Positions 1 through 61,232 of a DNA stretch of 64,000 bases are shown here, one piece after another. The notes below the pieces were generated by a model, which searched no databases, had not been told where the DNA came from, and worked only from the letters and a program-made list of their open reading frames with translations. Source of the DNA: Escherichia coli. Its GTDB lineage: Bacteria; Pseudomonadota; Gammaproteobacteria; Enterobacterales; Enterobacteriaceae. The stretch lies in the NCBI RefSeq assembly GCF_044324875.1, contig NZ_CP172185.1. One strand, given 5' to 3'. Each line of letters starts with the position of its first letter. The stretch's first letter is position 1. The position numbers and the translations under genes were made by a program.

Positions 1-443
1 GGATTCGTACCATTCGGAAGCAAGCAGCGAGTATTTACGCACCAGGTACAACCTTTACAATTGGCAAAGGGCAGGTATTACGTGAAGGTACGGATGTCAC
101 CTTAATTGCTAATGGCATTATGGTGGTGGAAGCCCTGGAGGCCGCACGTCAACTTGAGCTGGCTGGGGTAAGTGTAGCGGTGATTGATATGTTTACGCTC
201 AAACCCGTTGATCGGATGTTAATTAAAAATTATGCCGAAAAAACAGGACGGATCGTAACATGTGAAAACCATAGTATTCATAATGGATTAGGTTCAGCGG
301 TTGCTGAAGTGCTTGTAGAAACTTGTCCTGTGCCCATGCGTCGGGTGGGGGTTAAAGAGCGGTATGGCCAGGTTGGAACTCAGGACTTTTTACAGAGAGA
401 GTACGGGTTAACCGCGCAAGATATTGGTAAGCGTACAGCCTGA
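1..443 (+). CDS. Transketolase C-terminal subunit, 5'-partial (runs off window start); 3' end rewritten by IS66 insertion
   Basis: Frame continuous from position 3 (…IGKGQVLREGTDVTLIANGIMVVEALEAARQLELAGVSVAVIDMFTLKPVDR…), typical transketolase C-terminal domain. Last codons GKRTA-stop lie inside the IS66 terminal repeat. Confidence 0.75.
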   Translation, partial: IRTIRKQAASIYAPGTTFTIGKGQVLREGTDVTLIANGIMVVEALEAARQLELAGVSVAVIDMFTLKPVDRMLIKNYAEKTGRIVTCENHSIHNGLGSAVAEVLVETCPVPMRRVGVKERYGQVGTQDFLQREYGLTAQDIGKRTA

Positions 444-497
444 ACCGTCTGGTCAGAATCTGACGAATTAGACAAAGTGGTGTCCACCAAATAAGTA

Positions 498-899
498 GTG
501 GGAACCAAAGTGTCAGATATGCAGAAAAATGTGACTCCCGGCAGGCGAAAAGGCTGCCCTAATTATCCTCCCGAATTTAAACAGCAGCTCGTTGCTGCCT
601 CCTGTGAACCCGGGATATCCATCTCAAAACTTGCTCTTGAAAATGGCATTAACGCCAATCTGTTGTTCAAATGGCGACAACAATGGCGCGAGGGAAAGCT
701 GCTATTACCTTCTTCAGAGAGCCCCCAGCTACTTCCTGTGACTCTCGATGCAGCTGCCGAACAGCCAGAATCGCTCGCAGAGGACCCGGAAACCCTCAGT
801 ATCAGCTGTGAGGTAACGTTCCGGCACGGGACGCTCCGCTTCAATGGCAATGTCAGCGAAAAGCTCCTGACTCTGCTGATACAGGAACTGAAGCGATGA
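498..899 (+). CDS. tnpA: IS66-family accessory protein TnpA (likely true start at internal Met near 519)
   Basis: First gene of the three-gene IS66 arrangement; motif …GISISKLALENGINANLLFKWRQQWREG…. Confidence 0.8.
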   Translation: MGTKVSDMQKNVTPGRRKGCPNYPPEFKQQLVAASCEPGISISKLALENGINANLLFKWRQQWREGKLLLPSSESPQLLPVTLDAAAEQPESLAEDPETLSISCEVTFRHGTLRFNGNVSEKLLTLLIQELKR

Positions 900-1243
900 T
901 CCCTTTACCTTCCGGGACCAAAATTTGGCTGGTTGCCGGTATCACCGATATGAGAAATGGCTTCAACGGCCTGGCTGCGAAAGTACAGACGGCGCTGAAA
1001 GACGATCCCATGTCCGGCCATGTTTTCATTTTCCGGGGCCGCAGCGGCAGTCAGGTTAAACTGCTGTGGTCCACCGGTGACGGACTGTGCCTCCTGACCA
1101 AACGGCTGGAGCGTGGGCGCTTCGCCTGGCCGTCAGCCCGTGATGGCAAAGTGTTCCTTACACAGGCGCAGCTGGCGATGCTGCTGGAAGGTATCGACTG
1201 GCGACAGCCTAAGCGGCTGCTGACCTCCCTGACCATGCTGTAA
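896..1243 (+). CDS. tnpB: IS66-family TnpB
   Basis: 115 aa, [26 protein letters not shown]…; start overlaps tnpA stop by 4 nt. Confidence 0.85.
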
Positions 1244-1292
1244 ATCTCTTTATCCTGGTTGTCACAGAATAAGCCCGGTAAAATACGGGCTT

Positions 1293-2831
1293 ATGAACGA
1301 CATCTCTTCTGACGACATCTTCCTGCTGAAACAGCGCCTGGCCGAACAGGAAGCGCTGATCCACGCCCTGCAGGAAAAGCTGAGCAACCGGGAGCGCGAA
1401 ATAGACCATCTGCAGGCGCAGCTGGATAAACTCCGCCGGATGAACTTCGGCAGTCGTTCCGAAAAAGTCTCCCGCCGTATCGCACAAATGGAAGCCGATC
1501 TGAACCAGCTTCAGAAAGAGAGCGATACGCTGACTGGTAGGGTGTATGACCCGGCAGTACAGCGTCCGTTGCGTCAGACCCGCATCCGTAAGCCGTTCCC
1601 TGAATCACTACCCCGTGACGAAAAGCGACTGTTGCCTGCGGCGCCGTGCTGCCCGAACTGCGGCGGTTCACTGAGCTATCTGGGCGAGGATACCGCCGAA
1701 CAGCTGGAGTTGATGCGTAGCGCCTTCCGGGTTATCCGGACGGTACGGGAAAAACATGCCTGTACTCAGTGCGATGCCATCGTGCAGGCACCTGCACCTT
1801 CGCGGCCCATCGAGCGGGGTATCGCCGGACCGGGGCTGCTGGCCCGCGTGCTGACCTCGAAGTATGCAGAGCACACCCCGCTGTATCGCCAGTCAGAAAT
1901 ATACGGCCGGCAAGGTGTGGAGCTGAGCCGTTCACTGCTGTCGGGCTGGGTGGATGCATGCTGCCGGCTGCTGTCTCCGCTGGAAGAGGCGCTTCATGGC
2001 TATGTCATGACTGACGGCAAACTCCATGCCGATGATACCCCGGTCCAGGTACTGATGCCGGGTAATAAGAAGACGAAGACCGGGCGGTTGTGGGCGTATG
2101 TTCGTGATGACCGCAATGCCGGGTCAGCGTTGGCACCTGCAGTGTGGTTCGCTTACAGCCCGGACAGAAAAGGCATCCATCCGCAGACTCATCTTGCTTG
2201 CTTCAGCGGTGTGCTGCAAGCGGATGCGTACGCCGGGTTCAACGAGCTGTATCGCAATGGTGGGATAACGGAAGCTGCCTGCTGGGCTCATGCCCGCCGA
2301 AAGATCCACGATGTGCACGTCCGCATCCCGTCAGCACTGACGGAAGAAGCCCTGGAGCAGATCGGTCAGTTGTACGCCATAGAGGCGGATATAAGGGGAA
2401 TGCCGGCAGAGCAGCGGCTTGCTGAACGTCAGCGAAAAACGAAACCGCTGTTGAAATCCCTGGAAAGCTGGTTGCGTGAAAAGATGAAGACCCTGTCGCG
2501 ACACTCAGAGTTGGCGAAGGCGTTCGCGTACGCACTTAACCAGTGGCCGGCACTGACGTACTATGCGAACGATGGCTGGGTGGAAATCGACAACAACATC
2601 GCTGAAAATGCCCTGCGGGCGGTAAGTCTGGGTCGTAAAAACTTCCTGTTCTTCGGCTCTGGCCATGGTGGTGAGCGGGGAGCGCTACTGTACAGCCTGA
2701 TAGGGACGTGCAAACTGAATGACGTGGATCCAGAAAGCTACCTTCGCCATGTGCTTGGCGTCATAGCAGACTGGCCGGTCAACCGGGTCAGCGAACTGCT
2801 TCCGTGGCGCATAGCACTGCCAGCTGAATAA
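1293..2831 (+). CDS. tnpC: IS66-family transposase TnpC
   Basis: 512 aa with N-terminal coiled-coil/leucine zipper, CxxC…CxxC zinc motif and conserved C-terminal …[15 protein letters not shown]…. Confidence 0.9.
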
Positions 2832-3113
2832 CACATCCCCGTCAATACGGCCCTCGCTGTACGCTTACAGATATTGTGGCGGCAGCCAGAGAGCTATTGT
2901 AATTCATGGAGTTTGTTTACCATTCTGTTTTTCTTAAAAGTGAGTGTCTGTGCGGTCACTAAACTCGGTAATAAAGCAGTTCATTGCAGGATAAGAAGCG
3001 TTTGGTTGTGTCGTTTTACCGTAAGAACCGACCGCCGTATGTAGCCATTAAGCCAGTATTGGTAACGTAGGTGCCCACCTTTTCAATGTACTGCGCCCCA
3101 AATCTTGGACATC

Positions 3114-3893
3114 CTATGAAAAATGTTTAAGTCGATATTGAACCGGACTCATACCATCGAGTTTCTCTTTAATGCGATGGTGATTGTAGTATTCAATGTA
3201 ATCAATTATATCTTGCTTTAGATGATGTAACTTATTGTATTTATTTAGATAGTAACATTCTGATTTTAATGTACTAAAAAAGCTTTCCATTGCTGCATTA
3301 TCTAAGCAGTTACCACGTCGGGACATGCTTTGTGTTATGCCATTATCACTCAACCAACGTTGCCAACGAGGCATCTGATATTGCCACCCCTGATCACTAT
3401 GCAACAAGGGCTTATCGTCTTTATTGAGTTGTTCTACCGCATCTAATAGCATGCTCTTTACCATTGATGCTAATGGGCGCTCAGTAAGGTTATATGAGAC
3501 TATTTCTCCATTATACAGGTCCATGATTGGTGATAAATAGAGCTTCCTGCCATCGACCTTAAACTCAGTGACATCTGTTACCCACTTTTGATTTGGGCGG
3601 TCAGCATAAAATTGTCTCTTCAGTAAATTATTACAAGTTCGCCCCTGTTCTCCACGATAGGCACGGTACTTCTTGCGCCTGATAAGTGAGCTGATACCCA
3701 GTTCCTTCATTAACTTTCTGATGGTTTTACCATTAAGTAAAATGCCCTCGTTACGGCAGGCAAGTCTGATGCGTCGATAACCATAACGCCCTTTATGCTG
3801 ATGGTATATTCTCAATATTACTTGTTTAACAAGTTGATATGGATCTGGCGCATTAAGGCGTTTCACGTGATAGTAAAATGTACTACGTGGCAA
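3114..3893 (-). CDS. IS3-family transposase OrfB (DDE integrase core); probably expressed by frameshift from orfA
   Basis: 259 aa with …WVTDVTEF… and …HSDQGWQY… motifs typical of the IS3 DDE domain. Confidence 0.8.
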   Translation of the reverse strand: MPRSTFYYHVKRLNAPDPYQLVKQVILRIYHQHKGRYGYRRIRLACRNEGILLNGKTIRKLMKELGISSLIRRKKYRAYRGEQGRTCNNLLKRQFYADRPNQKWVTDVTEFKVDGRKLYLSPIMDLYNGEIVSYNLTERPLASMVKSMLLDAVEQLNKDDKPLLHSDQGWQYQMPRWQRWLSDNGITQSMSRRGNCLDNAAMESFFSTLKSECYYLNKYNKLHHLKQDIIDYIEYYNHHRIKEKLDGMSPVQYRLKHFS

Positions 3894-3952
3894 ATCAGCG
3901 ATAACCAGTAATTGTGATAATGGATGACATTGCCTTAACTCATTAATAATGA

Positions 3953-4453
3953 TTACTTTTTCTTTTGTTCCAATCGTAATTTTTCCTGAGCTAAGGCTTT
4001 CAGCTTTTTTAGATAAGCGTTCTCAACTCTCAGAAACTCAAGTTCTTCCCGTTCACTGATTGTCAGTTGTGTCGAACGATTTCGTTGATAAACAGCAGGA
4101 GTTTTCGGCCTCAAATCTTCCTTTTGTCCCTTCATCGAAAAATCAACCTCACTGTATTTTTTAATCCATTTGGATATGGTGTTAAAAGCAGGGATCCCAT
4201 ACTTCACTGCAGCTTCCCTTATAGAAAGAGAATTATCAATAACATCTCTGACCACATTCAATCTGAAGTTATCGTCATAACGTCTTTTTTGCCCAGTCAG
4301 TGTTTTTAATCCGTGCTTACGGTAAACATAAGCCCATTTCCTTACCGTGCTGGGGTCAATATTGTACATTTTTCCAACAGACTTCAAACTCAGCTCACCT
4401 TCCAGGTATTTTTCTGATACTTCCCTTTTGAATTCTAATGAAAATTTGCTCAT
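3953..4453 (-). CDS. IS3-family transposase OrfA (HTH)
   Basis: 166 aa, MSKFSLEFKREVSEKYLEGELSLKSVGKMYNIDPSTVRKW…, C-terminal leucine-zipper-like region. Confidence 0.8.
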   Translation of the reverse strand: MSKFSLEFKREVSEKYLEGELSLKSVGKMYNIDPSTVRKWAYVYRKHGLKTLTGQKRRYDDNFRLNVVRDVIDNSLSIREAAVKYGIPAFNTISKWIKKYSEVDFSMKGQKEDLRPKTPAVYQRNRSTQLTISEREELEFLRVENAYLKKLKALAQEKLRLEQKKK

Positions 4454-4559
4454 ACGCTCCTCAGTTACAGATCTGGTGTCTAACTATTGGGGCGCACTTC
4501 ATCAAACTGGTGGACGCCTGTTATGGAGCAAAAACATTATCCGCAGAACCCCGCAGATC

Positions 4560-4682: not shown

Positions 4683-5548
4683 CAGAACGTAAGGTAAAGG
4701 GAGATGAAAAAGGCAATAGCAGAACTGAGTGACAGTGAAACCATTCTGGCGTACAGGGTTGGATGGTGAAACTGATAAAAAAACCCCTCTGAAAATTCTG
4801 TCAGAGGGGTGTAGTCAATAAGGGTGTCATATTCAACATGAAGATGTCTTCTGGGAATGTTTACATAGCAAATGCTTTCACTCCGGTAATTAATTTCCGT
4901 GATTAACTGCTTTCGATCAATAAAGGAATTGCAAAAGTGTGATCTTGTTCACGACATTGTGGATGATAATATGCCTGATGTCTGAATCCGGAAACAGTGA
5001 TCTGGCGGTTTCATGTGAAGTTGACGGATAAAAAATCCGCACGACCAGACAGACGTGCGGTTTACGAAATTCGTAACAAGAGGCTTTTCTACGGATCACG
5101 TGGTGCGTGCCACGTGAAATTTTTGTAGCGCAAAATGTGTGATGTGTAAATACAAGGAAGGAAAAAAGTTAAATCGGTGGAAGTCCATGCCTGCCACATG
5201 TATGTCTGCATTCCTCGTTTTGAACAGAATTCTCACCAGACATCGTGAATTTCTCATTCAATCATCAGAGATATTACCCAGGATTTTTATTGTTTTGTGA
5301 TAGCAGTACTTTAAATGTTCAGATGCTAAAATAAGCGCGCTTATTATAATTATAGTTATGATGTTTTATCTTTATGTATTTTAATGATTTTCTCGTCATT
5401 GCTTTTCTGCTGCTTAAATTGAGGGCGCATATTATACACAATAATATTCCTGGCATTATTAAATTAATAAAAGAGGATTCTTATCACTGTATTTTTGCTC
5501 CGCACTACCGTTCTGGCTGGTGAAGTAATAATACAGGAGAATAACAGA

Positions 5549-7096
5549 ATGCTTAAAAGACGTGATGCTTTTTTAAAGAAAAGCGCGCTGGCAGTGAGTG
5601 TGGCCCTGCTGCTCTCATCTCAGGCTCAGGCTCAGGATATTTTATTCGGACCGATTCAACCTGGCGAAGATAATAGCTTTCTTGTTGGAGATTCAGTAGC
5701 TGGCCGTTCGTCTGGTGACATAAGAAATGTATGGTTGGTGGGTGATAATTCTTTTTTATTAGACTCAAACAGGACTGTGCTTTTGGGGAATAATTCTGGT
5801 GTTGTGAGCTCTCCGGGAAGTGTGAGTCTGGGGCATGATGCACTTATTGCTGACTCTGAATGGGGGACTGTTGCAGGAAAAGAAGCGTCACTTATTTCTT
5901 CTCGTCAGAGCTCGGCAATTGGTGCGTTTTCATCTGTGCAGGATTCTACCAGTTCTGTAGCTCTGGGCCATGGCTCACAGGTGTCGGGAGAAAATAACGT
6001 GGTATCTGTTGGTGCCGGGCCTGAGGGATATGGAGAGAGTGTCAAAGGAGCACCGGAAACCCGCCGGATTATAAATGTGTCTGATGGTATCAATAACACA
6101 GATGCAGCGACGGTAGGGCAACTGAATGAACGATTTGATGATGCACAGGTCTTTTTGTTGCAGACGAATGAAAGAATTGACGAGACAGATAAACGTCTTT
6201 CAACAGTTCATGCTGAACTCAGCAGGGATATTATTGCAGGCACATCGGCAGCGGTGACGTATACAGATGTAACAGCGCTTGCACTTCAGGATGAGATAAA
6301 GGATGGGACGAACAAAGTACGTGATGAGTTGAAATCACAGGGAGACAGTCTGCGTGGTGAGATAGGCGGTGTATACAGAGATGCCCGTGCTCATACTGAC
6401 AGTCAGGTCACAGCAGTACGTGATGAACTGAAGGCAGAGGGAGACAGTCTGCGCGGTGAGATAGGCGGTGTATACAGAGATGCCCGTGCTCATACTGACA
6501 GTCAGGTTACAGCAGTACGTGATGAACTCAGCAGGGATATTATTGCAGGCACATCGGCAGCGGTGGCGTATACGGATGCATCTTCTCTTGCTCTTCAGGA
6601 TGAAATAAAAGAAAAAGCGGATGAAACAGTTCAGGTTTCCCGGGCTTATACAGATAAAAGTGTACGGGATGCCCGTAAAGAAGCGAAAAGCCAGGCAGAA
6701 CATCTCAGCGATGTGCTTGTGAAGAACAGGGCGCAGACGGATGCAGCAATAGCCTCAAATACAGCAGCGATAAGGAATAACAGTCATCGTCTGGATTTGA
6801 CGGAAGCCTGGCAGAAGATGGCGACAGAGAGAATGAATAATATGCAGGAGCAGATTAAAGAGAACCGGAAGGAGTTAAGGGAGAGTGCAGCCCAGAGCGC
6901 GGCACTGGCAGGTCTTTTCCAGCCATACAGTGTTGGAAAATTTAACGCGACAGCAGCCGTTGGTGGTTACCGTGATGAGCAGGCCATTGCGGTGGGCGTG
7001 GGCTACCGTTTCACAGAGAATGTGGCAGGAAAAGTTGCAGTTGCTGCAGGTGGGTCATCCGCATCGTGGAATGCTGGTGTGAATTTTGAGTTCTGA
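5549..7096 (+). CDS. Trimeric autotransporter adhesin (YadA-like C-terminal anchor) with internal repeats
   Basis: Signal peptide [28 protein letters not shown] after a GGAGA ribosome-binding site. Coiled-coil stalk with repeats. C-terminal membrane anchor …[19 protein letters not shown]…GVNFEF. The ORF track starts 18 codons upstream at 5495. Confidence 0.75.
6320..6517. repeat. Two near-identical 99-bp in-frame tandem repeats inside the adhesin gene
   Basis: GGAGACAGTCTGCG(T/C)GGTGAGATAGGCGGTGTATACAGAGATGCCCGTGCTCATACTGACAGTCAGGT… recurs with 99-bp period (encoding [30 protein letters not shown] twice). A second repeat pair (…[13 protein letters not shown]…LALQDEIK) brackets them. Confidence 0.85.
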
Positions 7097-7859: not shown

Positions 7860-9170
7860 GCACACATGTTTTAATTCTGCACTGAATTCAGAATGGGTAA
7901 TCAGTGACCGTCCAGGCGGTCACCGAACTCGATAATAAAGCGGCTCATTGCCATTCGCCAGTCCTTCAACGGCATCGTCCATTTCTGGGACGCAGACTGG
8001 ATTGCCAGCCACACCACTTTTTTCACCGAGTCGTCTGTCGGGAACACTTTACGCTTTTTGATCGCATGGCGGATCACGCTGTTTAGCGACTCGATTGCAT
8101 TCGTCGTATAGATCACTTTGCGGATGTCCGTTGGATAAGCGAAGAACGTGGCAAGATTCGGCCAGTTAGCCTGCCAGCTTCGGCTTATCTGAGGATAGCG
8201 ACTGTCCCAGGCCGCAGCGAACGCTTCCAGTGCCTGCTGACCTGCCTCTTCCGTGGGAGCCTGATAAATCGCTTTCAGGTCGCGAGTGACGGCTTTGTAG
8301 TCCTTCCATGACACGAAGCGCAGGCTGTTGCGCACCATATGCACGATGCATAACTGGATGCGGGCCTTCGGATATACTGTGTTGATGGCATCCGGGAAGC
8401 CTTTCAGGCCATCCACACAGGCGATGAGGATATCGTTCAGACCGCGGTTTTTCAGTTCAGTCAGCACATTGAGCCAGAACTTCGCCCCTTCATTTTCGGC
8501 CAGCCACATACCCAGCAGTTCCTTCTGACCTTCGATATTGATGCCCAGTGCCAGGAACACCGATTTGTTGATGACGCGACTGTCCTGCCGAACTTTCAGG
8601 ACGATACAGTCAAGATAAACAATGGGGTAAACAGCATCCAGTGGTCTGTTTTGCCATTCTACAACCTGCTCCATCACGGCATCGGTGACCTTTGATATCA
8701 GTGCCGGTGAAACATCTGCGTCATACAGTTCTTTGAACGCAGTAGCTATCTCACGGGTGGTCATCCCTTTGGCATACAACGAGAGGATCTGGTTATCCAT
8801 CCCGGTAATACGGGTCTGATTTTTCTTTACCAGTTGTGGTTCGAAGGTACCGTCACGATCGCGCGGAGTACGCAGTTCCAGTGGACCGTCGCCTGTGATA
8901 ACGGTCTTTGTGGAATAACCGTTGCGGGAGTTAGCTCCTGGTCTGGACTGATTTTTCTCATACCCAAGATGGTGTGTCATCTCTGCATTGAGAGCGGCTT
9001 CAACGCTGAGCTTTTTCAGCAGCCGATCAAACTGACTGAGGTCTTCAGGGGTTTTGAGGTTTTTGGCCAGTTCGTTAGCCAGAGCCTGTAACTGTTTTTC
9101 GTCCATAAATTAACCTTCATTTGATGCTGGATTGAACATATCAAAATCAGGCAATTACACAAATCTATGT
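7860..9170 (-). mobile_element. IS256-family insertion sequence (boundaries approximate)
   Basis: Single 401-aa transposase ORF with about 50-60 bp flanks; terminal repeats not confidently delimited by eye. Confidence 0.6.
7901..9106 (-). CDS. IS256-family transposase
   Basis: 401 aa, MDEKQLQALANELAKNLKTPEDL… with …YLDCIVLKVRQ… and …CIVHMVRNSL… motifs typical of IS256 (mutator-type) transposases. Confidence 0.85.
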   Translation of the reverse strand: MDEKQLQALANELAKNLKTPEDLSQFDRLLKKLSVEAALNAEMTHHLGYEKNQSRPGANSRNGYSTKTVITGDGPLELRTPRDRDGTFEPQLVKKNQTRITGMDNQILSLYAKGMTTREIATAFKELYDADVSPALISKVTDAVMEQVVEWQNRPLDAVYPIVYLDCIVLKVRQDSRVINKSVFLALGINIEGQKELLGMWLAENEGAKFWLNVLTELKNRGLNDILIACVDGLKGFPDAINTVYPKARIQLCIVHMVRNSLRFVSWKDYKAVTRDLKAIYQAPTEEAGQQALEAFAAAWDSRYPQISRSWQANWPNLATFFAYPTDIRKVIYTTNAIESLNSVIRHAIKKRKVFPTDDSVKKVVWLAIQSASQKWTMPLKDWRMAMSRFIIEFGDRLDGH

Positions 9171-15218: not shown

Positions 15219-15356
15219 ATAATTAATAGCCGGACAATTTTTATTGTCCGGTAAAATTCATCGTAAGCGCTCCTTCTGTGCCGTCTTGTGGTGGTTGTCC
15301 TGTCTGGCAACAATCGCGTCCATCTATTGATGGACACGAACGATGTGGATTTGCCC

Positions 15357-16262
15357 CTATATATCCAGACATCTGTTATCACTTAACCCATTACAGGCCC
15401 GCTGCCGCAGATATTCCCGTGGCGAGCGATAACCCAGTGCACTATGCGGATGCCATTCGTTATAATGCTCGAACGCCTCTGCAAGGTTCTTTGCTGCCGT
15501 TAACCCGTCTGGTTTGGGCATGACACTGATGTAGTCACGCTTTATCGTTTTCACGAAGCTCTCTGCTATGCCGTTACTCTCCGGACTCCGCACCGCCGTG
15601 TTCTTCGGTTCAAGCCCCAACATCCGGGCAAACTGCCGTGTTTCATTAGCCCGGTAGCATGAACCATTATCCGTCAGCCACTCTACTGGAGACGCCGGAA
15701 GCTCGTTGCCGAAGCGGCGTTCCACCGCTCCCAGCATGACGTCCTGTACTGTTTCACTGTTGAAGCCGCCCGTAGTGACCGCCCAGTGCAGTGCCTCACG
15801 GTCACAGCAGTCCAGCGCGAACGTGACTCGCAGTTTTTCTCCGTTATCACAGCGGAACTCGAACCCGTCAGAGCACCATCGCTGATTACTTTCTTTCACA
15901 GCCACTCTGCCGGTATGTGCCCGTTTCGATGGCGGTACAGCGGTTTTTCGCTCAAGCAACAGCGCATTCTGGCGCATGATCCGGTAAATACGTTTGGCAT
16001 TGATCGCAGGCATACCATCAAGTTCTGTTTGTCTGCGAAGCAGCGCCCATATCCGACGATAACCATATGTGGGTAGCTCTCCGATAACATGGTGTATACG
16101 GCGAAGCACATCCGTATCATCCGTGTGACGGCTGCGGCGTCCGTCCTTCCAGTCATCGGCTCGTCTGAGAATTACGTGCAACTGCGCACGCGACACCCGG
16201 AGACAACGGCTGACGAAGCTTACTCCCCATCCCCGGGCAATAAGGGCGCGTGCGCTATCCAC
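15357..16262 (-). CDS. insD: IS2 InsD (OrfB transposase)
   Basis: 301 aa, [34 protein letters not shown]… with DDE core. Confidence 0.9.
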
Positions 16263-16630
16263 TTTTTTGCTCGCCCATATTCAACGGCTTCTTTAAGGAG
16301 TTCATTTTCCATCGTTTTTTTGCCGAGCAGACGCTGGAGTTCTTTAATCTGCTTCATGGCGGCAGCAAGTTCAGAGGCAGGAACGACCTGTTCTCCGGCA
16401 GCCACAGCAGTAAGACTTCCCTCCTGGTATTGCTTACGCCAGAGAAATAGCTGGCTGGCTGCCACACCATGTTGCCGGGCAACAAGGGAGACCGTCATTC
16501 CCGGTTCAAAACTCTGCTGAACAATAGCGATCTTTTCCTGTGTAGTACGCCGTCTGCGTTTCTCCGGTCCTAAGACATCAATCATCTGCTCTCCAATGAC
16601 TAGTCTAAAAACTAGTATTAAGACTATCAC
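16220..16630 (-). CDS. insC: IS2 InsC (OrfA)
   Basis: 136 aa, [56 protein letters not shown]…. Confidence 0.9.
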
Positions 16631-17482
16631 TTATTTAAGTGATATTGGTTGTCTGGAGATTCATGGGGCCAGTCTACTCCCGCATTAAAATATACTGTTC
16701 TTTCCGGATAATTACGTTAAAATAGACACCTGCGTGCATCTGTGTCAGACTCCGTTAGATACCAGCGTACATTGTAAACATGCCGGATGCACGCAATACA
16801 ATAATCGGTCTTTTCGGAGTTATAGTCACCAGGCTGGCATCCCGTAAATATGTATCAGGTAGCAATTCAGGAAGCGAACAAAAGCGCCTGGAGAAGGTTA
16901 TCTCTGATAATAATTTACATGAAATGTCTCCTTTATTCTTCGCGAATAAGGCCTTCAGTGTTCTCCCCTTTTCAGCAATTCTTACCGTAGTAATCACTCC
17001 TGCCTGTGTATAACACGAGAATTGCCAGAGTTTAACGTTTCGGTATCGTTATCCTGCATGATGTTGAACAGAACCGGGCGTGAATTCTGCGCCAGAATTT
17101 TCTTTCGAGGAACATTCCGGGTTATCTGTAGTACAGGAGGAGATTTTCTCCTATTTCAAATAAAATTCAATGACAGGTGAATATTTAAATATAAATGCAT
17201 CGCTTCAACAGAGAAATCGGAATTACGCCCGGAACCAGGTCTGAATGAATAATGGAGGAGGAAAAATAATATTATTGATGAAAATATCAAATCAAGTCCC
17301 CCTTCTCCTTCCCCAGCTTAAATATACTTACTTTTTCACTGGATAATATGTTATTGAATTACAAAGTTGATCCTGATATACATGATTTCCGGCTCTTGCA
17401 TCCAGTGATAACTTTATATACTCCTGCAAAGGCGAACTTCGTAAAAGTATACTTTTCTGTTGTAAGCATTGAGGTATCGAAT

Positions 17483-50064: not shown

Positions 50065-50160
50065 AACCGATATTCCTTTTTGCAGATAAATGAAAACGCC
50101 AGCCCTGTTCAGGCTAGACTGGCCCCCTGAATCTCCAGACAACCAGTATCACTTAAATAA

Positions 50161-50571
50161 GTGATAGTCTTAATACTAGTTTTTAGACTAGTCATTGGAG
50201 AACAGATGATTGATGTCTTAGGGCCGGAGAAACGCAGACGGCGTACCACACAGGAAAAGATCGCAATTGTTCAGCAGAGCTTTGAACCGGGGATGACGGT
50301 CTCCCTCGTTGCCCGGCAACATGGTGTAGCAGCCAGCCAGTTATTTCTCTGGCGTAAGCAATACCAGGAAGGAAGTCTTACTGCTGTCGCCGCCGGAGAA
50401 CAGGTTGTTCCTGCCTCTGAACTTGCTGCCGCCATGAAGCAGATTAAAGAACTCCAGCGCCTGCTCGGCAAGAAAACGATGGAAAATGAACTCCTCAAAG
50501 AAGCCGTTGAATATGGACGGGCAAAAAAGTGGATAGCGCACGCGCCCTTATTGCCCGGGGATGGGGAGTAA
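50161..50571 (+). CDS. insC: IS2 InsC
   Basis: 136 aa, identical in length and nearly identical in sequence to copy 1. Confidence 0.9.
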
Positions 50572-51434
50572 GCTTAGTCAGCCGTTGTCTCCGGGTGTCG
50601 CGTGCGCAGTTGCACGTCATTCTCAGACGAACCGATGACTGGATGGATGGCCGCCGCAGTCGTCACACTGATGATACGGATGTGCTTCTCCGTATACACC
50701 ATGTTATCGGAGAGCTGCCAACGTATGGTTATCGTCGGGTATGGGCGCTGCTTCGCAGACAGGCAGAACTTGATGGTATGCCTGCGATCAATGCCAAACG
50801 TGTTTACCGGATCATGCGCCAGAATGCGCTGTTGCTTGAGCGAAAACCTGCTGTACCGCCATCGAAACGGGCACATACAGGCAGAGTGGCCGTGAAAGAA
50901 AGCAATCAGCGATGGTGCTCTGACGGGTTCGAGTTCTGCTGTGATAACGGAGAGAGACTGCGTGTCACGTTCGCGCTGGACTGCTGTGATCGTGAGGCAC
51001 TGCACTGGGCGGTCACTACCGGCGGCTTCAACAGTGAAACAGTACAGGACGTAATGCCAGGAGCGGTGGAACGCCGCTTCGGCAACGATCTTCCGTCGTC
51101 TCCAGTGGAGTGGCTGACGGATAATGGTTCATGCTACCGGGCTAATGAAACACGCCAGTTCGCCCGGATGTTGGGACTTGAACCGAAGAACACGGCGGTG
51201 CGGAGTCCGGAGAGTAACGGAATAGCAGAGAGCTTCGTGAAAACGATAAAGCGTGACTACATCAGTATCATGCCCAAACCAGACGGGTTAACGGCAGCAA
51301 AGAACCTTGCAGAGGCGTTCGAGCATTATAACGAATGGCATCCGCATAGTGCGCTGGGTTATCGCTCGCCACGGGAATATCTGCGGCAGCGGGCTTGTAA
51401 TGGGTTAAGTGATAACAGATGTCTGGAAATATAG
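50529..51434 (+). CDS. insD: IS2 InsD
   Basis: 301 aa DDE transposase. Confidence 0.9.
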
Positions 51435-51496
51435 GGGCAAATCCACAGGCTGGCGTCAGGTTAATGAATCGTGGTGAGTGAGATGATGAGTGAAAC

Positions 51497-60904: not shown

Positions 60905-61232
60905 TTCTATCTGAATTCTCTTTTAACGACACATCAGAAAAAATGCAACACCCACATTGGTGATTTTCATTTGCTTACAAAACCATACTTTAAATTACAA
61001 ACAAATAATACACACACCTCGGATAAAATCACGTCGAAATTTAATTATTTTAAATAAATAATGCATTAAAAATATCCATAAATTATCCAGCTGAATATTT
61101 TTTATATGAAAAACATGCTGTCGTTCGTTGTCTTGCGTATTCCGCTCTATTCGATCACGGATTGGCATCGAAGTCCGATCAGCGATTCGCATCCATTCGA
61201 TCAACCGGGAACTTAACTTTTTCTACCGCTTT

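Follow-up and report, generated by a model that had tools for sequence, protein, structure and literature searches.

Elements of the IS66 family are recognised by terminal inverted repeats starting GTAAGCG and by the 8-bp target-site duplication that flanks them. Among transketolases, a split-gene enzyme has been characterised from Carboxydothermus hydrogenoformans (ChTK; PMC7661550), while the tkt1 island of APEC O1/ExPEC, common in avian E. coli, carries an accessory transketolase-like gene beside PTS genes (PMC3349570). In addition, the E. coli TktA variant G540stop, from which the whole TKC domain is deleted, is reported to be active, with its catalytic rate retained or even increased (PMC5286519). 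Here we describe an ISEc8 copy of the IS66 family at the very end of an accessory split-transketolase gene, in a 64,000-nt stretch of E. coli DNA (hereafter the window), and compare the interrupted gene and its predicted product with these systems.

The IS body, oriented like the transketolase gene, occupies positions 427-2868 of the window (2442 bp, + strand), and the insertion point is 24 nt ahead of the native stop codon. Sequence reading, a script check and alignment to the empty site place the direct repeat AGATATTG at 419-426 and 2869-2876, abutting both ends of the IS, and the chance probability of a specified 8-mer matching at the repeat position is ~1.5e-5. The IS termini are inverted repeats that match perfectly over 13 bp, GTAAGCGTACAGC, and at scattered positions out to ~22 nt; the perfect part lies at 427-439 on the left (+ strand) and, from the inverted-repeat match, at 2856-2868 on the right (- strand). 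This 13-mer occurs at the two IS ends only within the 64-kb window, where 0.01 occurrences would be expected by chance. On the left side, the 3' part of the transketolase C-terminal (beta) subunit gene, as it is now ended, spans 1-443 (+ strand; Pfam Transketolase_C, E 4e-33) and has 100% nucleotide identity to genes encoding WP_000609007.1 in complete E. coli genomes. On the right side, 2877-2900 (+ strand) holds the native end of the gene, now displaced and split from the remaining gene by the IS; together with G2876 it encodes VAAARELL and the native TAA stop codon (2898-2900).

The element carries three intact genes on the + strand. The first, tnpA (519-899; 381 nt), is equal in length to the RefSeq tnpA annotation and encodes an accessory protein of 126 aa with an HTH (Pfam HTH_Tnp_1); a GTG-extended ORF begins at 498. 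The tnpA product scores 97.7 bits with the NCBIfam IS66-like TnpA model (cut-off 74). The tnpA stop and tnpB start overlap as ATGA at 896-899, and tnpB (896-1243) encodes the 115-aa IS66 Orf2 protein (Pfam TnpB_IS66, E 1e-38; NCBIfam IS66_TnpB). The third gene, tnpC (1293-2831), encodes an intact DDE transposase of 512 aa, which matches Pfam DDE_Tnp_IS66 (PF03050) over model positions 1-283 of 284 (E 9e-107) and the NCBIfam transpos_IS66 model NF033517 with 457 bits (cut-off 180), and which also carries the Pfam domains zf-IS66, LZ_Tnp_IS66 and IS66_C. Using nucleotide comparison we found that 422-2869 is 100% identical to several E. coli copies named 'IS66-like element ISEc8 family' by RefSeq, with full-length identity of 99.9-100% to annotated copies. 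Megablast detected thousands of copies of the element in 5426 complete E. coli genomes, with a median of 4 places per genome matching ISEc8, and the same length, 2442 bp, is seen in an independent ISEc8 copy of strain GF4, which is flanked by an 8-bp duplication of its own, CCATTAAG. Thus the tnpA-tnpB-tnpC layout, the DDE TnpC, ends of the GTAAGCG type, the 8-bp duplication and near-identity to named copies are all found, and the element is ISEc8, which is known and evidently active. Compared with ISEc8 copies in E. coli chromosomes and plasmids, the window copy has the same sequence, length, gene layout and duplication size, and differs in its insertion site only. The earlier note had described an IS66-family element flanked by an 8-bp duplication; domain and nucleotide matches agree on the family and name the element more exactly, and the duplication holds, AGATATTG lying on both sides of the IS but only once at the empty site.

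We reconstructed the empty site by removing the IS and one copy of the repeat, and this 660-nt sequence had a one-piece match in 132 complete E. coli genomes, counted as those holding at least 80% of the site in one piece. Nucleotides 1-636 of it were at 100% identity in most of the matches listed, and strain ECCNB12-2 could be aligned to both window junctions, with a single AGATATTG at its empty site. In GF4 and ECCNB12-2 the uninterrupted gene is a 954-nt CDS encoding the 317-aa 'transketolase family protein' WP_000609007.1, with a Transket_pyr domain (PF02779) at residues 12-171 and a Transketolase_C domain (PF02780) at residues 189-309. Since the window opens at codon 169 of 317, it is the Transketolase_C part alone that is visible for the interrupted gene; across its visible native codons, 169-309 (141 codons), identity to the intact allele is 100% and the frame is unbroken by frameshift or stop. 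Upstream of the gene, GF4 and ECCNB12-2 have an overlapping gene for a 276-aa Transketolase_N (ThDP-binding, PP) subunit, and further upstream genes for ascorbate-type PTS IIA, IIB and IIC components and a divergent LacI-family regulator. From its sequence and these neighbourhoods, the target is the C-terminal (beta) subunit gene of a predicted split transketolase, and the last gene of a putative accessory cassette for sugar utilisation, borne on a genomic island.

Among solved structures, the encoded chain is most closely related to the C-terminal chain of the split enzyme from Carboxydothermus (6YAJ/6YAK; E 1e-70). The two share the same chain of Pyr and TKC domains, aligned over residues 12-315, and in related genomes the E. 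coli gene pairs with an upstream N-terminal subunit gene, as in the Carboxydothermus enzyme. The terminal helix is also conserved between them (LTAQDIVAAARE in E. coli, LTARDVVAAVQK in ChTK). Unlike ChTK, however, the E. coli cassette is preceded by an ascorbate-type PTS and a LacI regulator and is carried on a genomic island, and in the window allele IS-encoded residues take over part of the last helix. Transketolase activity is predicted for the encoded chain from its homology to ChTK, which has been characterised. The published tkt1 island of APEC O1 was considered as the target locus and ruled out, being another locus; there, one full-length transketolase-like gene of ~2 kb, tkt1, has a glucose-type IIBC component as its neighbour, in place of a split transketolase that follows an ascorbate-type PTS. 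A link to the PTS operon c3405-c3410 of CFT073 was also dropped, that operon having been published as a maltose/glucose-type PTS with transketolase not mentioned.

Codon-by-codon reading of the interrupted frame gives CAA GAT ATT GGT AAG CGT ACA GCC TGA, which is translated as Q D I G K R T A and closed by the TGA at 441-443. The Gly codon spans the junction, being formed by G426 of the duplicated target and the GT of IS nt 1-2, while the new TGA is IS nt 15-17 and follows closely on the perfect stretch of the inverted repeat. When the IS and one repeat copy were deleted in silico, the native ending ...TAQDIVAAARELL followed by a stop was restored. The last eight residues, 310-317 (VAAARELL), are therefore replaced by five (GKRTA), which takes the product from 317 aa to 314 aa, ending ...TAQDIGKRTA. 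These readings bear out the C-terminus proposed in the earlier note for the interrupted gene (DIGKRTA and a stop), and its proposed native ending is the one with which the uninterrupted alleles of the 132 complete genomes end, no different native C-terminus having emerged from this comparison. It had further stated that the new codons and the stop are supplied by the terminal repeat of the IS; they are IS-derived, although the wording was loose with regard to the TGA, which is slightly outside the perfect repeat. A protein can be made from the variant ORF, because this is closed by a normal stop codon. The note's further proposal, that the gene is probably still expressed with an altered C-terminus, is therefore plausible. 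The 5' half of the gene and its promoter lie upstream of the window, however, and may be damaged in the source strain, which counts against the gene being still translated.

All reading frames that enter the left end of ISEc8 are closed within 45 nt, by stops at IS nt 2-4, 15-17 and 43-45. Short chimeric tails are thus a generic result of ISEc8 insertion near gene ends, and the tail seen here is nothing special to the transketolase site.

The native C-terminus was modelled by AlphaFold2 with a last helix at residues 306-316 and a pLDDT of ~96 in the last block. Of this helix AQDI alone survives in the variant, the lost residues making up ~70% of it. In 38 orthologues (74-94% identity) I309, A312, A313 and L316 never vary, and conservation at L317 is at least 90%. 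Likewise, the full helix is kept in 119 of 120 cluster representatives, which end 1-5 residues (rarely more) past the L316 equivalent, and the sole exception is a contig-end fragment. The helix can be aligned out to the crystallised Carboxydothermus split transketolase (6YAJ, to residue 315) and to human transketolase. The Pfam Transketolase_C model stops exactly at I309, and the replaced residues are beyond this broadly conserved domain core. For the variant, AlphaFold2 predicted a helix at 306-313, with a mean pLDDT of 65 against 76 for the native protein, values obtained from a shallow alignment and in a score that is not a measure of stability. Taken from these alignments and models, the replaced segment is a conserved, predicted helix and not a disposable tail.

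To our knowledge the TKC domain has no catalytic role. G540stop and the window allele are both C-terminally altered transketolases, and the former shows that the C-terminal domain is dispensable for the chemistry. However, G540stop removes the whole domain cleanly, whereas the window allele swaps eight residues of the last helix and leaves a possibly destabilised domain attached. Because the replaced residues belong to the conserved terminal helix, some loss of stability or function in the variant protein is plausible, and the protein is probably somewhat destabilised.

We then examined the distribution of the junction. Among the 5426 complete E. coli genomes the left junction was nowhere matched over 80% or more of its length, and the sole match to the right junction was a non-contiguous two-piece match in strain CM2. 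CM2 was rejected as an instance of the same junction: what is left of the gene there, 177 nt, is separated by ~107 nt from an ISEc8 copy without duplication, and we therefore regard the arrangement as a separate event. A 41-nt junction string was not found in GTDB species representatives or in JGI metagenome contigs, and exact look-up of the reconstructed 314-aa product, which assumes that its N-terminal 168 residues equal those of WP_000609007.1, showed it not to be on record. As the junction was found nowhere else in these collections and the IS is 100% identical to other copies, the insertion looks recent and private to the strain. Downstream, the gene is directly adjoined by an IS3-family element, and many further ISs lie within the window. 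This tkt-IS3 arrangement on the right of the gene is also present in GF4 and TUM9803 and is therefore older than the ISEc8 event. Of the related poultry strains, ECCNB12-2 has IS1414 at the same spot, and GF4 has ISEc8 inside IS3 there.

A simple scan of the + strand for terminator-like sites found none from the gene to the IS and none in the native 3' region, a result that carries no weight in either direction. Because ISEc8 is co-oriented with the operon and no terminator-like site intervenes, transcripts of the operon would be expected to run on into the element. Through such read-through from a sugar-inducible operon, the supply of its sugar might govern ISEc8 transposase expression and with it transposition; separately, three different ISEc8 arrangements at or beside the gene in poultry E. 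coli (the window, GF4 and CM2) raise the idea of a local hotspot or of selection against the cassette. We consider either of these a long shot.

The locus is very probably explained by a recent ISEc8 transposition into the end of the accessory split-transketolase gene, a private mutation whose product would be translated with a frayed C-terminal domain. An active-looking ISEc8 copy would have transposed recently into the last gene of the cassette of LacI regulator, ascorbate-type PTS and split transketolase, its DDE transposase making staggered target cuts 8 bp apart, as suggested by the footprint, with repair then duplicating AGATATTG. None of the observations speaks against the insertion as such. 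Translation would follow the frame 17 nt into the left IS end to the TGA and give the 314-aa product read from the sequence. The most likely outcome would be a protein that is still translated but less stable or less active, its C-terminal domain being frayed, and the operon mRNA would now read into the IS rather than into the native 3' region. In an island riddled with ISs, the mutation is probably neutral to mildly deleterious and not a designed or selected feature.

Whether the frayed domain matters for the enzyme is the point on which a first alternative differs. If the altered protein were fully functional, the insertion would be silent for transketolase and the window would simply hold an allele with a different tail, which we regard as possible but doubtful. 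Its in-frame stop comes after just five new codons, I309 is where the Pfam TKC model stops, catalysis by E. coli transketolase can do without the TKC domain, as the reported activity of G540stop indicates (PMC5286519), and AlphaFold2 retains a short helix near the end of the variant, at 306-313; the last three of these also count against impaired function. Weighing on the other side are the invariance of A312, A313 and L316 and the near-invariance of L317, the Gly that now follows I309, and the fact that no natural relative among the 120 cluster representatives ends inside the helix. Partial loss of a folded domain may, moreover, often be worse than loss of the whole, and the fall in mean pLDDT from 76 to 65, weak evidence in itself, points the same way.

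At the other extreme, the gene or the whole operon may be effectively dead and the insertion one step in the decay of an IS-overrun island. The IS3-family element immediately after the gene and the many other ISs in the window are consistent with this, as are the IS1414 and the ISEc8 within IS3 that the related poultry strains ECCNB12-2 and GF4 have gathered at the same spot, and the 177-nt gene remnant that CM2 keeps beside an ISEc8 copy without duplication. However, the 141 native codons in view match the intact allele at 100% identity and hold neither frameshift nor stop, only eight residues are changed, and the upstream genes lie outside the window, so that we consider decay unlikely. An assembly artefact, in which a mis-joined repeat mimics an insertion, is barely credible. 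ISEc8 is multi-copy in E. coli (a median of 4 places per genome), repeats are a classic cause of mis-assembly, and the junction was seen nowhere else in the collections searched; yet mis-joins do not create target duplications, and here the target is duplicated perfectly over 8 bp, the usual length for ISEc8, and the flanks rejoin precisely into a known intact gene. Recent transposition with a translated but frayed product is thus the reading we retain.

This is an ordinary insertion of a known element and a kind of event that is already known, with little importance beyond strain-level annotation. At that level, automated annotation would call the 314-aa ORF an intact 'transketolase family protein' despite its IS-chimeric terminal helix. 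The insertion documents recent ISEc8 activity in the source lineage, and the allele is a natural C-terminal helix mutant for studies of the LacI/PTS/split-transketolase cassette in avian-type E. coli.

An IS3-family element (window ~3087–4500, minus strand; orfB 3114–3893, orfA 3953–4453) lies on the downstream side of the gene for the C-terminal transketolase subunit, 186 nt from its native stop, and this arrangement of the transketolase gene followed by the IS3-family element is common to the E. coli strains GF4 and TUM9803. In GF4, ISEc8, the IS66-family element that interrupts the transketolase gene in the window, is located within the IS3-family element and not in the transketolase gene, while in strain ECCNB12-2 IS1414 is found between the gene and the IS3-family element. 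From the IS arrangements in the window, GF4 and ECCNB12-2, the 3′ side of the cassette is therefore a repeated IS acceptor. In strain CM2 (NZ_CP158308.1, 3649–6373), the transketolase gene is reduced to a 177-nt 3′ remnant. An ISEc8 copy with a frameshifted tnpC and no target duplication is located ~107 nt away from this remnant, and together these features suggest that the remainder of the cassette was lost by an IS-associated deletion.

Several other mobile elements were identified in the window. The transposase gene of IS1414 (IS256 family) is found at 7901–9106, and an IS21-family element is present as two copies in direct orientation (32606–35246 and 61134–63774), each with a 548-aa istA ORF and a 332-aa istB ORF. 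These copies are 2641 bp each, 100% identical to each other and 28.5 kb apart. Different apparent 4-bp duplications accompany them (TTGC at one and GTCT at the other), so that they look like independent insertions and not a single composite transposon. A second IS66-family transposase ORF (35194–36504, minus strand; 436 aa, matching positions 5–305 of 387 in the NCBIfam model) overlaps at its 3′ end with the end of the first IS21-family copy, and was thus probably cut by that insertion, giving nested ISs. The window contains just two instances of the ISEc8 terminal repeat, so this ORF does not belong to a further ISEc8. We also detected an IS-sized inverted repeat of 1333 nt (15344–16676 and 50115–51447; 95% identity between copies), and the ~33 kb segment enclosed by the repeat copies could undergo inversion if they recombined with each other.

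Other island genes on the plus strand include a 533-aa ORF for a YadA-like trimeric autotransporter adhesin (5495–7096), and a classical autotransporter of 1274 aa (27908–31732), annotated in related genomes as an S6-family peptidase. A 500-aa ORF (43668–45170, plus strand) is weakly similar to the phosphoethanolamine transferases CptA/EptA; its MCR model scores are far under the cut-offs, which led us to reject it as an mcr gene, and it is a predicted, uncharacterised sulfatase-fold transferase carried by the island.

Finally, the Pseudocitrobacter corydidari orthologue, 83% identical to the native transketolase protein, has the UniRef name ‘Apulose-4-phosphate transketolase subunit B’. This name may be an automated transfer, and it hints that the substrate of the cassette might be a branched or unusual sugar, as in the D-apiose pathway.
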